A stretch of DNA of 64,000 nt. It comes from Candidatus Hydrogenedentota bacterium. GTDB lineage: Bacteria > Hydrogenedentota > Hydrogenedentia > Hydrogenedentales > SLHB01. The notes under the pieces were generated by a model. It was given only the letters and a program-made list of their open reading frames with translations, made no database searches and had not been told where the DNA came from. Of this stretch, positions 8,047-12,872 are shown one piece after another. The stretch is from contig BTWA01000003.1 in assembly GCA_045863295.1 (NCBI GenBank), positions 225,888 to 289,887 on the forward strand. Direction: 5' to 3'. A program made the translations under genes and the position numbers. Numbering within the stretch: position 1 is the first letter of the stretch; each line of letters starts with the position of its first letter.

Positions 8047-8056
8047 TTTCTTCCTC

Positions 8057-8237
8057 TGGAGTGCGGAAGCTTGCTTCCGCTTTGGATGAGCCAGCTTGCT
8101 GGCGTCGCATTCTGTACACGCCTTGTGCGTTATGTTCCAGCGGTAGTCAGGGCGTTTGCTTGCGAGGGTCCGGCATTGGGGTGGGCACGCGGGAGCAAGC
8201 TCCCTTGGGTAAAGCGGAAGCAAGCTTCCGCACTCCA
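8057..8237. repeat. REP/REPIN-like palindromic element, single 181-bp copy
   Basis: Perfect 27-bp terminal inverted repeats TGGAGTGCGGAAGCTTGCTTCCGCTTT; internal hairpins GCCAGC-TT-GCTGGC and GGGAGC-AA-GCTCCC. Confidence 0.9.
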
Positions 8238-8247
8238 AAGAGCGCAT

Positions 8248-9012
8248 TTACTTCGGCAGAATCCAAATCACACAGCGGTAGGCCGTACCCCACCGCATCG
8301 CGCAGAGGACAGGCGTTATCAGCCGTAGCGCCGCCTGGGCAACGGCATTGCCCCGGCCGGGCCAGTTGCCCATCAGCACAAGCCACATCCACGTCCAAAG
8401 GCGCACGGGGACATTGCTTTCCATCGAGATTCGCCGTGCGTCCCCAGCGGCGCCTTCGAATTGGCGGGCAATAGCTTTGGCATCGGGCAAGCCCATAGTG
8501 CGGTGTTCCTCGAGCCAACGGATGGACCCGCCGGTAAACCGGCGATGCGCTTCCCGAACCGTTTCTTCCGCGCGGCGTGCGTGCTCGCCGGATGGAAATG
8601 CGACGACGGCGGCGCCGTCACCGTGCAAAACGCGCAGGATGGAGACAGTGGCCGCGGCGCGCGCGGTGTCCGGCAGGTGCTCGAACGTGTCCACGCACAC
8701 GCACAGATCGAACGCTCCATCGGCGAACGGCAAGTGCGCGATATCGGCCGCGACCGGCACGACGCGTTGTGCCCCGCGCGCGGCTTTGAGGTGGTCCACG
8801 GCCACGTCCACCGCGATCACGCGACGTCCGCTGAACCGGGAGAGGCCGTTTTCATTCGCGCCGATCTCGAGGATGCGGCCATCCAGGCGATTCATACGGC
8901 GCAGCCGGCGCACGATGGGGACATAACGCATCGCCCAATCGGGATAGCCTCGCCCATCCTTTTCGGCATATGCGCGCAACCACCGCGCGATGGATTCGGT
9001 GAATCGTTTCAT
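8248..9012 (-). CDS. Class I SAM-dependent methyltransferase
   Basis: ILEIGANENG, VIAVDV, ADIAHLPFADGAFDLCVCVDTFEHL; start set at MKRFTES because the longer ORF runs into repeats. Confidence 0.85.
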   Translation of the reverse strand: MKRFTESIARWLRAYAEKDGRGYPDWAMRYVPIVRRLRRMNRLDGRILEIGANENGLSRFSGRRVIAVDVAVDHLKAARGAQRVVPVAADIAHLPFADGAFDLCVCVDTFEHLPDTARAAATVSILRVLHGDGAAVVAFPSGEHARRAEETVREAHRRFTGGSIRWLEEHRTMGLPDAKAIARQFEGAAGDARRISMESNVPVRLWTWMWLVLMGNWPGRGNAVAQAALRLITPVLCAMRWGTAYRCVIWILPK

Positions 9013-9059
9013 GCGGCAAGATATATCACGGATCCATCCGAGGATTACACGGAATACTC

Positions 9060-9550
9060 TGGAGTGCGGAAGCTTGCTTCCGCCTTGGATGAGCCAGCTT
9101 GCTGGCGTCGCATTCTGTGCATGCTTTGTGCGTAATGCTTCAGCGGGTGTCAGGGCGTTTGCTTGCGAGGGATTGGCGTTTGGGGTGTGCACGCGGGAGC
9201 AAGCTCCCTTGGGTAAAGCGGAAGCAAGCTTTCGCTTTAGATGAGCCAGCATGCTGGCGTCGCATTCTGTGCATGCTTTGTGCGTAATGCTTCAGCGGGT
9301 GTCAGGGCGTTTGCTTGCGAGGGAATGGCATTGGGGTGTGCACGCGGGAGCAAGCTCCCTTGGGCAAAAGCGGAAGCAAGCTTCCGCAGGCCAGAGATGA
9401 GCCGGCTTACTGGCGTCGCATTCTGTGCATGCTTTGTGCGTTATGCTTTAGCGGTTGTCAGGGCGTTTGCTTGCGAGCGCGCGGCATTGGGGTGTGCACA
9501 CGGGAGCAAGCTCCCTTAGGCAGGGCGGAAGCAAGCTTCCGCAGGCCAGA
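9060..9550. repeat. Tandem array of three REPIN-like units (same family and orientation as 8057-8237)
   Basis: Three ~155-165 bp units, each GATGAGCC..GCTGGCGTCGCATTCTGT...CAGGGCGTTTGCTTGCGAG...GGGAGCAAGCTCCCTT...GCGGAAGCAAGCTT. Confidence 0.9.
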
Positions 9551-9557
9551 GTGCGCA

Positions 9558-9671
9558 TTTGACCCCAACGGGGTCAAACATACTAGCCTAGGGCAAAGTT
9601 CGCCCGCGCGGAGCGAGGAGAACGCCGCCCTAGGAAACGAGGCCCCCATGCTCCCCACTCTGAAGGAGTGG
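9558..9671. repeat. Second palindromic extragenic element (three hairpins)
   Basis: TTTGACCCC-aac-GGGGTCAAA; CCTAGGGC...GCCCTAGG; CCACTC-tgaag-GAGTGG; single copy in the window. Confidence 0.5.
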
Positions 9672-9796
9672 CACAATGTGTTACGACCTTCGGATGCGGC
9701 CCGGTCGTGCACACGCGGCAGGTCTCCTCGCTCAAAACGTTTCGAAATCTGTGCGGGCTGCAGCCTCCCAGCATCAACCGGCCGGCAACGACAGTG

Positions 9797-9824
9797 TGCT
9801 TCCCGTGGCGGGAGGCATTATAAT
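9797..9824 (+). promoter_or_regulatory. Candidate -10 box with adjacent inverted repeat upstream of the PspA-like operon
   Basis: TATAAT at 9819-9824 preceded by TGCTTCCCG-tgg-CGGGAGGCA. Confidence 0.45.
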
Positions 9825-9877
9825 GCGGATTCGAACGGTAGTTGGCGCGGAATAGCCCAAGGAGGAGGATCGATCCG

Positions 9878-10702
9878 ATGTTTGCAGCGATTGGCAGGTG
9901 GTTCCGGGCGTTGGGCTATTTGTTTACGGGCAAGATCGATTCATCCCGACGCGGCATGGATCTGAATCCGCACGTGATCCGCGCGAAATACGAAGACATC
10001 ATCCGTGCGAAAACCAGTCAGATTCACACGTATAAGCAGGCCATGGCGACGCTGATTGCACAGCAGGTGCAGAAAATGGCCAAGGTGAAGCAACTCACTG
10101 ATGACGTGAAGCACCTGGAAAACCTGAAATCCGGCGCGTTGGCCAAGGCGAAGAAGACAGTGGAAGAACTGAAGGCCAAGGGCCAGCCCGAAGAAACCAT
10201 CAAGACGCACGAGGATTACCTGAAGTGCCTCTCGGCGTTCAACGATTTCAGCTCCACATTGAACGAGAAGCAGGAACGCATCGCGGAGTTGGAAGAAGAT
10301 CTGGGCGAATACGGAAAGCGCATCAGTGAACACAAACTGCAGTTGCAGTCACTGCTCCGCGATGTGGACAAACTGCGTTCGGAATCGGCGGACGCGGTGG
10401 CGGAAGTCATCACGGCGAAGGAAGAAAAGGAAATTGCCGAGTCCATTGCCGGCATCGCGCAGGATGGAACTGCCGAGGAATTGCAGCGGTTGCGCCAGAT
10501 GCGCCAGGAAGTCAAGGCGGAAGCCCGCGTGACGCGCGAATTGGCGGGCACGACGACGCGCGCGCAAGAGGAAGAATTCATTGCGTATGCGCGGCAGTCG
10601 GAAGGCAGCAGCGAATTCGATCAACTGATCGGCCTGGCGGAAAAGGCCGACACGGCGGCCCCGGAACAGGCCCCCGCCGAAACCGAACGCCTGCCGGAAT
10701 GA
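9878..10702 (+). CDS. PspA/IM30 (Vipp1/ESCRT-III superfamily)-like coiled-coil protein
   Basis: SD GGAGGAGG; N-terminal amphipathic helix MFAAIGRWFRALGYLF, DLNP hinge (cf. PspA EDP), long helical hairpin, C-terminal short helices EEEFIAY and SEFDQL; 274 aa. Confidence 0.7.
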   Translation: MFAAIGRWFRALGYLFTGKIDSSRRGMDLNPHVIRAKYEDIIRAKTSQIHTYKQAMATLIAQQVQKMAKVKQLTDDVKHLENLKSGALAKAKKTVEELKAKGQPEETIKTHEDYLKCLSAFNDFSSTLNEKQERIAELEEDLGEYGKRISEHKLQLQSLLRDVDKLRSESADAVAEVITAKEEKEIAESIAGIAQDGTAEELQRLRQMRQEVKAEARVTRELAGTTTRAQEEEFIAYARQSEGSSEFDQLIGLAEKADTAAPEQAPAETERLPE

Positions 10703-10723
10703 TCGGCCCGGACAGGGAATTTC

Positions 10724-12544
10724 ATGCAGCCTGACTACCCATTTTTGCGCACCGCGGGCCGGATACTGAACGCGGGCCAGGCGCGGACGATTTTGTTTAC
10801 GGGCAACATCCACGATCTCTTCCGTGTGGAAAAGCCCGACGGGCAAATCGACTACGTCCCGCTGATCGAATACCTCATCGCCAAGTGGAACCTGCCGCAA
10901 TACATGCTGCTGGTCTATGAATTGAACGGACCCATCCGGTTCGTCAATGAAAGTGACCGGCCCATTCTTCGCGACGCGTGGTTGCGCTGGCGGGTCGGCC
11001 TGACAGGCGATCAGCTTGCCATCAAACGCGTAACCGAGTCCGTGCGCACGACGCAGGATCAGGATGCCGCGGCGCGCGCGTACGACGCCAACCTGCAGTC
11101 CGCCGTCGGCAACGCGACCGTGGCGCTGGAACTGCTGCGGCAGATGTGCTTGTGTTCGCGCACGCGAATCGACGGCAAACCCGCGCTCGACAAAAACCTG
11201 ATCATCTTGATCGAAGCCGGTGATCTGCTGGTGCCCGAAGGCGAAATTACCCGCCTGTCGGACGCGGACCGCCGGCGCGTCAGCATTTGCCACGACTGGT
11301 TTTCCGATCCCGGCTTCACGAACGGGGGCGATTCGGTGGTTGTCTTTGCGGAATCGCGCAGCCAATTGAACCAGCGCATCGCGGGCCTCCCCCATGTGCT
11401 GGAATCCTCCGTGCCCTCTCCCGACGAAGCCGCGCGCAAGGAATTCATCTCCTGGTTCAATCAGCGCCAGCCGGAAATCGCGAAAGCACGGCTGTGGTCG
11501 ACCGAGGACGACCTTGCGAAGTACACGGCGGGGTTGTCGTTGCACGCGTTGAACCAACTGTTGAAGGGCGCGGCCTACCAGCGGGAGCCGCTTTCGCTCG
11601 ATCACGTCGTGGCCAAAGTCGAGGAATTTATCCAAAGCCAATTGGGCGAAGATGTCGTGGAGTTCAAGAAGCCCTCGCACACCCTGGACGACGTGGTCGG
11701 ATTTTCGCGCCTGAAGCATTTCCTGCGCACGGAACTAATCCCCCGCTTTCAATCCACCGGACCGGACGCGCTTCCCGGTGCGGCCGTGGCCGGGCCCATT
11801 GGCGGCGGCAAGACGTTTATATTCGAAGCGGTCGCGTCGGAACTGGACATGGTGGTGCTGGTGATCAAGAACATCCGCAGCCAGTGGTTCGGCCAGACCG
11901 ATGTGATCTTCGAGCGGTTGAAGCGCGTGCTCGAAGCGCTGTCGAAAGTGCTCATCTTCGTCGATGAAGCGGACACGCAATTCGGCGCCATTGGCCCCGA
12001 GGCACACGACACCGAGCGCCGCCTGACTGGCAAGATTCAGCAACTCATGTCCGACCCGCGCACGCGCGGACGGGTCATCTGGTTGCTGATGACCGCGCGC
12101 ATTCATTTGTTGTCCCCGGACATCCGCCGCCCAGGGCGCGTGGGCGATCTCATCATTCCCGTGCTTGACCCCGAAGGGGCCGATCGCGAAGCGTTTTTAC
12201 GCTGGGTGGTAAAAGATGTCGTCGCGGGGGAACTGGACACAGCCCAGTTGGAACGGTTGTCCGATGCGACCATCAATTACTCGGCGGCGAGTTTCGCATC
12301 GCTGCGATCCGAACTGCGCGCGCAGACGAAAGTAGCCGGGGGATCGCTTCCATTCGAACGCGTCCTCGAACGGGTCAACGACATGCTGCCCGCGGATATC
12401 CGGGAGACGCGTGAATACCAGGAATTGCAGGCCCTGGTGAACTGCACCCGCCGCAGCCTCCTCCCCGATCCCACCATCGACGAAAGTCAGCGCGCCGCCT
12501 GGGCCGCCGAACTCCGCAAACTCGAATCCAAAGGCATCCGCTAA
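10724..12544 (+). CDS. AAA+ ATPase with a degenerate N-terminal AAA-like region and an active C-terminal classic-clade AAA domain
   Basis: TLDDVVG, Walker A GPIGGGKT, pore loop SQWFGQTD, Walker B LIFVDEAD, second region of homology LSPDIRRPGR. Confidence 0.9.
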   Translation: MQPDYPFLRTAGRILNAGQARTILFTGNIHDLFRVEKPDGQIDYVPLIEYLIAKWNLPQYMLLVYELNGPIRFVNESDRPILRDAWLRWRVGLTGDQLAIKRVTESVRTTQDQDAAARAYDANLQSAVGNATVALELLRQMCLCSRTRIDGKPALDKNLIILIEAGDLLVPEGEITRLSDADRRRVSICHDWFSDPGFTNGGDSVVVFAESRSQLNQRIAGLPHVLESSVPSPDEAARKEFISWFNQRQPEIAKARLWSTEDDLAKYTAGLSLHALNQLLKGAAYQREPLSLDHVVAKVEEFIQSQLGEDVVEFKKPSHTLDDVVGFSRLKHFLRTELIPRFQSTGPDALPGAAVAGPIGGGKTFIFEAVASELDMVVLVIKNIRSQWFGQTDVIFERLKRVLEALSKVLIFVDEADTQFGAIGPEAHDTERRLTGKIQQLMSDPRTRGRVIWLLMTARIHLLSPDIRRPGRVGDLIIPVLDPEGADREAFLRWVVKDVVAGELDTAQLERLSDATINYSAASFASLRSELRAQTKVAGGSLPFERVLERVNDMLPADIRETREYQELQALVNCTRRSLLPDPTIDESQRAAWAAELRKLESKGIR

Positions 12545-12546
12545 CT

Positions 12547-12872
12547 CTCTGGCCTGCCGAATCGTGCTTCCGCGTGCACACCGAAACGCCAAGCCTACAC
12601 AAGCAGACGCCCTGATAAACGCGGAAACAAATCGCACGATCCGTCCACAGAATGCGACGCCAGCAAGCTGGCTCATCTCTGGCCTGCGGAAGCTTGCTTC
12701 CGCTTTACCTAAGGGAGCTTGCTCCCGGGTGCACACCCAAATGCCGGACCCTCGCAAGCAAACGCCCTGACAAACGCTAAAACATAACGCATAAGGCGTG
12801 TTCAGAATGCGACGCCAGCGAGCTGGCTCATCTAAAGCGGAAGCAAGCTTCCGCAGGCCAGGGAGCTTGCTC
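12547..12872. repeat. Two REPIN-like units in inverted orientation relative to the 8-9.5 kb copies (first unit decayed)
   Basis: CAGAATGCGACGCCAGC.AGCTGGCTCATC twice; GCGGAAGCTTGCTTCCGC; GGGAGCTTGCTCCC; lies between convergent genes. Confidence 0.9.

Follow-up and report, generated by a model that had tools for sequence, protein, structure and literature searches.

We analysed a 64,000-nucleotide (nt) stretch of contig BTWA01000003.1 from a Candidatus Hydrogenedentota bacterium (the window), which carries two co-directional genes separated by a gap of 21 nt (10703-10723). Gene 1 encodes a protein probably related to PspA and Vipp1, and gene 2, immediately downstream, a tandem (D1-D2) AAA+ ATPase; the pair is a new, minimal two-gene form of a system previously predicted in silico, in which the ATPase would act on a membrane-bound polymer of the PspA-like protein. 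The positions of both genes and of their features are collected in Table 1.

An earlier reading of the DNA, made without database searches (the sequence-only reading), had described a two-gene operon with a strong Shine-Dalgarno sequence, and the coordinates of this arrangement were confirmed. The purine-rich Shine-Dalgarno sequence of gene 1 was kept in 12 related upstream regions, where the alignment showed a nearly invariant GGAG core. All 32 of the close gene 1 homologues begin with MF, and the start of gene 1 was therefore placed at ATG 9878 rather than at TTG 9842, an assignment also supported by the position of AAGGAGGAGGA. The same reading had noted a TATAAT hexamer with an inverted repeat; the hexamer indeed lies within a perfect palindrome, GCATTATAATGC, but a consensus scan revealed no full sigma-70 site, and the element is a -10 candidate that may double as an operator. 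AATAAT-like hexamers occur at a similar distance in related short-form loci. The scan used for the promoter detected no + strand terminator either in the gap between the genes or past gene 2.

Table 1. Positions in the window of the two genes, their predicted parts and the repeats around them (aa, amino acids; AF2, AlphaFold2; pLDDT, predicted local distance difference test; REP/MITE, repetitive extragenic palindrome/miniature inverted-repeat transposable element).
Feature	Position	Strand	Details
Gene 1	9878-10702	+	ATG 9878 to TGA 10700-10702; 274 aa; likely a divergent PspA/Vipp1-like (ESCRT-III superfamily) protein
Gene 2	10724-12544	+	ATG 10724 to TAA 12542-12544; 606 aa; predicted type-II (tandem D1-D2) AAA+ ATPase
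Shine-Dalgarno AAGGAGGAGGA	9859-9869	+	3' end 8 nt before gene 1 ATG
Perfect 12-nt palindrome GCATTATAATGC	9815-9826	+	encloses TATAAT 9819-9824; read directly
Gene 1: helix alpha0, putative membrane-binding	9881-9961	+	residues 2-28; AF2 pLDDT 86-90
Gene 1: long helical hairpin	9968-10462	+	residues 31-100 and 112-195; AF2 pLDDT > 90
Gene 1: extended hairpin tip	10178-10210	+	residues 101-111
Gene 1: EFDQLIGL motif, start of flexible tail	10613-10636	+	residues 246-253
Gene 1: C-terminal tripeptide LPE	10691-10699	+	residues 272-274, after variable acidic linker
Gene 2: D1, degenerate AAA module	10724-11623	+	~residues 1-300
Gene 2: TGNIHD in place of D1 Walker A	10799-10816	+	residue 26
Gene 2: LIILIEAGD at D1 Walker B position	11198-11224	+	residue 159
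Gene 2: D2, predicted active AAA module	11624-12454	+	four motifs present
Gene 2: D2 Walker A GPIGGGKT	11792-11815	+	residue 357
Gene 2: D2 pore loop 1 QWFGQ	11882-11896	+	within SQWFGQ, residues 386-391
Gene 2: D2 Walker B VLIFVDEAD	11948-11974	+	residue 409
Gene 2: D2 arginine-finger region RRPGR	12125-12139	+	residue 468
Gene 2: C-terminal helix motif R-Y-Q-x-L-Q-A-L-x-N-C-T-R-R-x-L-L-P	12410-12466	+	residues 563-581, past AAA small subdomain
REP/MITE-like palindromic repeat, left outer copy	8054-8250		flanks module, outside operon
Array of 3-4 copies of REP/MITE-like repeat	9056-9560		upstream of gene 1
Two inverted-orientation copies of REP/MITE-like repeat	12546-12864		begins 2 nt past gene 2 stop

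The gene 1 protein had been described as PspA-like, and several profile, structure and alignment searches agree with this. Its top Pfam match was PspA_IM30 (PF04012; 18.1 bits, E 0.0021, profile positions 31-208 of 220). The family to which it belongs is large, with 1144 matches at E <= 1e-3 in a 90%-clustered collection and 473 representatives upon 50% clustering, and a profile built from 92 of its members, when searched against the sequences of the PDB, returned Vipp1 (6zvr) as the best match (E 2.2e-8) through two collinear stretches (query 39-96 to 30-87, and 133-250 to 99-213) which span a shared ELAG-x-D region and leave about 35 residues of the query without a match at the hairpin tip. 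PspA_IM30 was also the commonest Pfam family among the 92 members (20/92 at E <= 0.01, best 3.4e-7), the next family being matched by 7. A Foldseek search of the AF2 model against the PDB placed Vipp1 chains in all of the top five positions (E 2e-3 to 1.6e-2). Alignment of the family with 31 canonical PspA sequences from related genomes by hhalign gave an E value of 1.7e-4 over 189 columns (query 18-250 to template 2-200), against 0.078 and 0.046 for two controls with reversed sequences, which covered only 20-32 columns.

Several results weigh against this placement. The protein misses the Pfam gathering threshold for PspA_IM30 (18.1 versus 33.9 bits), and the hhalign probability was 49% against the 31-sequence PspA alignment and 5% against a single canonical PspA. 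The same family profile matched unrelated coiled coils, namely coronavirus spike HR1 constructs, at E 4e-7, so that coiled-coil bias comes close to the Vipp1 signal, and a phmmer search of the PDB with the single gene 1 protein found chance coiled coils only. An exhaustive fold search ranked an Smc coiled coil first (Z 13.3), with E. coli PspA (4whe) in 15th place (Z 10.8) and the CHMP4B hairpin in 37th; as generic helical hairpins dominate such a search, fold alone cannot place gene 1. The placement was further strengthened by genomic context, since a paralogous operon in the same genome, described below, uses a canonical PspA. On this combined sequence evidence gene 1 is likely a member of the PspA/Vipp1 (ESCRT-III) superfamily.

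The AF2 model of the gene 1 protein (pLDDT 82) consists of helices at residues 2-28, 31-100, 105-109, 112-195 and 202-250, followed by a low-confidence tail. The N-terminal helix, alpha0, in which F2, R7 and W8 are invariant across close homologues, had been claimed to be amphipathic; the helix is predicted as such, but its amphipathicity is modest, with a hydrophobic moment of 0.40 that is matched by 14% of shuffled sequences, and this counts against the mechanism proposed below. An insertion of about 20 aa at the hairpin tip proved real but larger than claimed, at ~25-35 extra residues compared with Vipp1 and PspA. The tail (residues 250-274), described earlier as acidic and flexible, has a net charge of -4. 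It is bounded by two conserved elements. The pattern EFDxLIGL is found in 32/32 close homologues and in 27/92 diverse members, and EFDQLIGL in the window protein is a candidate docking motif; LPE forms the C-terminus in 32/32 close homologues and 33/92 diverse members, and may have a role in recognition of the tail.

Gene 2 matched the Pfam AAA family at residues 355-474 (E 3e-14), with only the second half of the protein scoring and all Pfam matches above cut-off being of the classical AAA type. Against NCBIfam the best model was CDC48 (61 bits, cut-off 803), and CdvC scored 47.3 bits (cut-off 650). By sequence, its nearest solved relatives are VAT and p97, and Vps4 was not found among its 60 best PDB sequence matches. 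The AF2 model (pLDDT 85) aligned from residues 1 to 577 with the D1-D2 tandem of Drg1 (Z 20.8, 480 residues), and likewise with NVL, Rix7, p97, Cdc48, VAT and Pex1/6. D2 on its own superposed on Vps4 (3eih; Z 19.7, root mean square deviation (rmsd) 3.6, 264 residues), and equally well on spastin, FIGNL1 and the Rpt subunits (Z about 19, rmsd 3.0-3.6 for the group). In p97 and VAT, the part of the chain that aligns with the model begins near residue 200, at D1, and no MIT domain was matched by Pfam in gene 2; since the model starts directly at D1, the enzyme has no MIT domain and no N-terminal double-psi-barrel domain.

The two AAA modules differ in their motifs, much as the sequence-only reading had it. 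In D1, the region it had described as lacking the Walker A lysine, TGNIHD stands at the P-loop and GK[ST] was found at the aligned position in 0/36 family sequences; residues 1-300 carry the Atlas label PF29202. In D2 the pore loop, Walker A, Walker B and RRPGR were present at the places claimed, and all four motif patterns matched in 36/36 aligned family members. Past the small subdomain, the C-terminal helix motif has invariant columns at R563, Q566, L568-L571, N573-R576, L579 and L580, and is partly kept in a 28%-identical paralogue from the same genome. In this family strand beta4 also ends in an invariant T-A-R (gene 2 residues 457-459, window 12098-12106), at a position where p97-type AAA proteins carry A-T-N (sensor 1), and T457 or R459 may take the sensor role. 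Judged by sequence and model, gene 2 is predicted to encode a type-II AAA+ enzyme of the substrate-threading type with an inactive D1 and intact D2 motifs. By its sequence it is not a Vps4 orthologue and stands nearer to Cdc48, p97 and VAT, so the label 'Vps4-like', as a statement of family membership, does not hold for a protein with two AAA modules and no MIT domain.

Co-occurrence of the two genes had been suggested as a check, and the two are closely linked across genomes. An alignment-based contig scan yielded 70 genome loci with a gene 1 homologue, which were classified by tblastn; an earlier scan with the single gene 1 protein as query had found no loci. The genes form an adjacent pair, as in the window, at 18 of the 70 loci and belong to a longer operon (the long form) at 28, whereas 14 end before an ATPase could appear and 10 have room for an ATPase that was not found within the fetched flank. 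Thus a gene 2 homologue lies downstream of gene 1 on the same strand at 46/56 untruncated loci. Of 135 genomes from the window's phylum, 27 carry gene 1, 27 carry gene 2 and 26 carry both, leaving one genome with gene 1 alone (84% complete) and one with gene 2 alone (99% complete); these counts carry no statistic, as related genomes are not independent. The distribution within the phylum is patchy (3 of 15 families). Against strict linkage stand the 10 of 56 untruncated loci without an ATPase inside the fetched flank, and genome G045, which is 99% complete and has a gene 2 homologue (E 1.5e-249) with no gene 1 homologue detected by this query. All five tested genomes with room but no nearby ATPase (5/5) encode gene 2 elsewhere. 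In G045, the contig extends for about 2.1 kb upstream of the ATPase gene.

The long form, exemplified by L023:3484-11675 and seen at 27 other loci, mostly in metagenome-assembled genomes (MAGs) labelled Verrucomicrobiota, has the order A-B-C-D-E-F-G, in which C is the gene 1 homologue and G the gene 2 homologue. By Pfam, A joins an NMT1-like binding protein to an OmpA domain, a further binding protein is encoded by D, and E and F are the permease and the ATPase of an ABC transporter; B is a membrane and coiled-coil protein (308 aa) with no Pfam match. In the window's own genome, tblastn detected neither A nor B, D or E. The absence of psp, lia or membrane partner genes noted by the sequence-only reading holds for the window copy, among whose neighbours none were seen, but not in general, as in most other lineages the pair brackets an ABC importer and is accompanied by OmpA-linked binding and membrane coiled-coil proteins. 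Two loci that carry the operon at ~63% identity, L018 and L030, are filed as 'Candidatus Bathyarchaeia archaeon' and 'Bifidobacteriaceae' MAGs, labels more likely due to mis-binning than to true occurrence.

The window genome contains three PspA genes above the Pfam cut-off, and one of these, a canonical PspA (49.4 bits), heads a six-gene paralogous operon on another contig (C17:37745-45023; L079:3745-11023). Behind it come, in order, an NMT1+OmpA binding protein, a permease, an ABC ATPase, a membrane coiled-coil protein of 289 aa and a tandem AAA protein of 593 aa; this last protein and gene 2 share 28% identity across 411 residues (E 4e-32). BLASTP detected no similarity between the gene 1 protein and the C17 PspA, and the 289-aa protein shares its architecture with long-form B without significant BLASTP similarity (E 0.32). 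With this operon found beside that of the window, one genome is seen to hold both a canonical-PspA version and a divergent two-gene version. The two best canonical PspA genes of this genome each follow directly on an open reading frame of 162-171 aa (L076:2187-2675 and L077:2197-2712, both on the - strand), which may encode a PilZ-type domain binding cyclic di-GMP, given an RxxxR-like and a D-x-G-R-G-G stretch.

The operon is bracketed, together with a methyltransferase gene on the minus strand (8248-9252), by copies of a REP/MITE-like element of ~150-190 nt. The outer pair (8056-8241 versus 12676-12861) is inverted and 91% complementary over 186 nt. A genome-wide blastn search with the repeat gave 36 pieces, with full-length copies only around this module, and 7/14 copies of the exact core motif in the 6.3-Mb genome fall within these three arrays. 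Besides the methyltransferase, the flanking genes encode a DUF1559 prepilin-type protein, a glyoxalase-fold protein and an HD/OB protein. DNA near-identical to window positions 9700-12700 occurs in sludge and bioreactor metagenome runs from several studies, none of these runs being on record as RNA.

From these features a mechanism can be proposed, to which we assign a probability of roughly 60%: the PspA-like protein would polymerise on the membrane, and a hexameric ATPase would thread its tail via D2 and so remodel or recycle the polymer. Helix alpha0 and the extended hairpin would attach the PspA-like protein to the cytoplasmic membrane on its inner face, where it would polymerise under envelope stress, like PspA and Vipp1. 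In the ATPase hexamer, the nucleotide-dead D1 ring may be a scaffold or a docking surface for the conserved tail motifs, and the active D2 ring, with its QWFGQ pore loop, Walker A/B motifs and arginine fingers, would thread the flexible acidic C-terminal tail, marked by EFDxLIGL and the invariant terminal LPE. Such threading would extract subunits and thereby remodel or recycle the polymer, a function analogous to that of Vps4 on ESCRT-III, carried out by an enzyme from a different, Cdc48-like branch of the AAA+ proteins. The analysis itself establishes the homology of the two proteins, the intact catalytic motifs and degenerate D1 of the ATPase, the operon structure, the close co-occurrence and the paralogous operon with a canonical PspA; polymerisation, membrane binding, tail recognition and the polymer as ATPase substrate are steps that we infer. 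A complex prediction of the full-length ATPase with gene 1 residues 196-274 gave a score of 0.00; it was run without controls and counts neither way. A further extension, to which we give slightly less than even odds, is that several bacterial phyla run a true ATP-driven ESCRT-III-type cycle, in which a Cdc48-like AAA+ protein with a dead D1 recognises an invariant C-terminal degron (EFDxLIGL...LPE), threads the PspA-like polymer and disassembles the coat; it could be an independent invention of a Vps4-type cycle or a relic of its origin. The tie to binding-protein-dependent importers in the long form may point to a role in envelope or osmotic stress, and a parallel may be seen in the ProX-type binding protein that PMC10936438 places in some archaeal ESCRT loci.

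The ATPase could have other clients, as in most lineages the pair sits in a transporter operon, and this also speaks against polymer remodelling as its task. Its substrates would then be other envelope proteins, and it would extract or assemble membrane or trans-envelope complexes, for instance those formed by the long form's ABC importer and OmpA-linked binding protein; the PspA-like protein would be no substrate but a membrane scaffold or adaptor which recruits the ATPase. At 28/70 loci the pair does enclose genes for a binding protein, a permease and an ABC ATPase and is preceded by NMT1+OmpA and membrane coiled-coil proteins, and the type-II relatives of the ATPase, Cdc48, Pex1/6 and Drg1, extract diverse clients. 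Ravi et al. (PMC11237479) propose that the system helps to assemble sub- and trans-membrane complexes. However, the two-gene form accounts for 18/70 loci and persists in the window genome without A, B, D or E, so the core function appears to need these two proteins only, and we regard other clients as an unlikely explanation. Less likely still is a regulatory pairing in the style of E. coli PspA-PspF, in which the PspA-like protein would bind and inhibit the ATPase until membrane stress releases it to act on something else. A passage of PMC7619361 describes PspA as a negative regulator of the AAA+ domain of PspF, and operonic 1:1 pairing would suit a stoichiometric regulator, but the aromatic pore loop and type-II fold of gene 2 are typical of threading enzymes. 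Pfam matches to gene 2 are of the classical AAA type only, with no DNA-binding helix-turn-helix (HTH) or other feature of bacterial enhancer-binding proteins, and gene 2 was rejected as a PspF-type regulator.

The sequence-only reading had also raised an anti-phage role, and a mobile defence cassette, with a polymer-forming effector and an ATPase carried between repeats, might account for the patchy distribution (27/135 genomes) and for the inverted 186-nt repeats that bracket the module. PADLOC gave it no support, returning generic matches only, the coiled coil matching LmuB/JetC and the AAA/P-loop region IetA (E 7.5e-7), and the neighbours are not defence genes. Moreover, the proteins retain 55-70% identity between MAGs labelled as several different phyla and the operon order is conserved, so that the operon looks like one with a housekeeping or stress function, and we consider a defence role very improbable. 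ATP-driven remodelling or recycling of a PspA-like polymer remains our preferred reading, and the earlier interpretation was largely right in function and wrong on family and novelty.

As a pair free of transporter partners, the locus offers the simplest system in which to ask whether bacterial ESCRT-III-type polymers use ATP-driven recycling, and it also poses the question of substrate recognition without an MIT-MIM (MIT-interacting motif) contact; the predicted system is well suited as a starting point for experiments. Two papers from the recent ESCRT literature disagree with such a reading: a 2025 review (PMC7619361) states that a Vps4-like ATPase appears absent in bacteria, and Makarova et al. 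2024 (PMC10936438) describe ESCRT systems as 'confined to archaea and eukaryotes'. A degron-threading, ESCRT-III-type cycle in bacteria would, if true, contradict that stated absence.

The nearest relatives of gene 1 among known proteins are Vipp1/IM30 and canonical PspA, which gave its best profile and Foldseek matches and whose helix order alpha0-alpha5 its AF2 model fits; it differs from them in its ~15% identity, its longer hairpin (helices of 70 and 84 residues) and its distinct C-terminal motifs. E. coli PspA is likewise genetically tied to an AAA+ ATPase, but its partner PspF, which it inhibits, belongs to the sigma-54 enhancer-binding proteins and has an HTH, whereas gene 2 is a classical-clade pore-loop enzyme with no DNA-binding domain. 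With ESCRT-III/Vps4 (CdvB/CdvC) the pair shares a helical-hairpin protein with a flexible C-terminal tail encoded beside a classical-clade AAA+ enzyme, and with Vps4 itself the aromatic pore loop, Walker A/B and arginine fingers, D2 superposing at Z 19.3-19.7 and rmsd 3.0-3.6. In contrast to Vps4 and CdvC, gene 2 has neither an MIT domain nor a Vps4_C match and contains two AAA modules instead of one, and the tail motifs of gene 1 differ from the MIM consensus. Cdc48/p97/VAT, Drg1/AFG2, NVL/Rix7 and Pex1/6 are closer, as their D1-D2 tandem aligns with that of gene 2 over ~450-480 residues and they include the best sequence matches; gene 2 departs from Cdc48/p97/VAT in having no N-terminal substrate/adaptor (double-psi-barrel) domain and no P-loop lysine in D1.

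The closest counterpart of the whole system is the dyad of Ravi et al. (mSystems 2024, PMC11237479), who report that bacterial PspA is occasionally accompanied by a two-AAA+ protein with an inactive N-terminal AAA, and suggest ATP-dependent membrane remodelling comparable to that by Snf7 and VPS4. The possible novelty raised by the sequence-only reading, on the ground that characterised bacterial PspA has no such partner, falls with this publication. In the literature covered, from which subscription journals are mostly absent, the dyad was treated only in this comparative survey and a review, and no experimental study of it was found. As at the window, a PspA-superfamily gene adjoins a tandem AAA with an inactive N-terminal copy, and the optional partners given there are the same (ABC ATPase, permease, PBPB+OmpA binding protein and 'TM+Snf7' membrane coiled-coil protein). 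The examples given include AEY64321.1/AEY64320.1 of Clostridium, to which the window pair is likened by published description only, and OGG56892.1 of Handelsmanbacteria, whose architecture (Table S3 of PMC11237479) has exactly the gene order of the C17 operon, with an AAA protein in C17 that is homologous to gene 2. The window PspA-like protein differs in forming a separate divergent family that falls below the Pfam cut-off, with an extended hairpin tip and an LPE end, and the long form differs in its A-B-C-D-E-F-G order with two binding proteins. As both the dyad and the Snf7/Vps4 analogy were already published, the window locus is a new minimal instance and not a new kind of system. While the idea is therefore not new, the locus adds to it a version reduced to two components, a separate PspA-like subfamily whose conserved motifs are candidates for recognition, and a genome that carries the divergent and canonical-PspA versions together.

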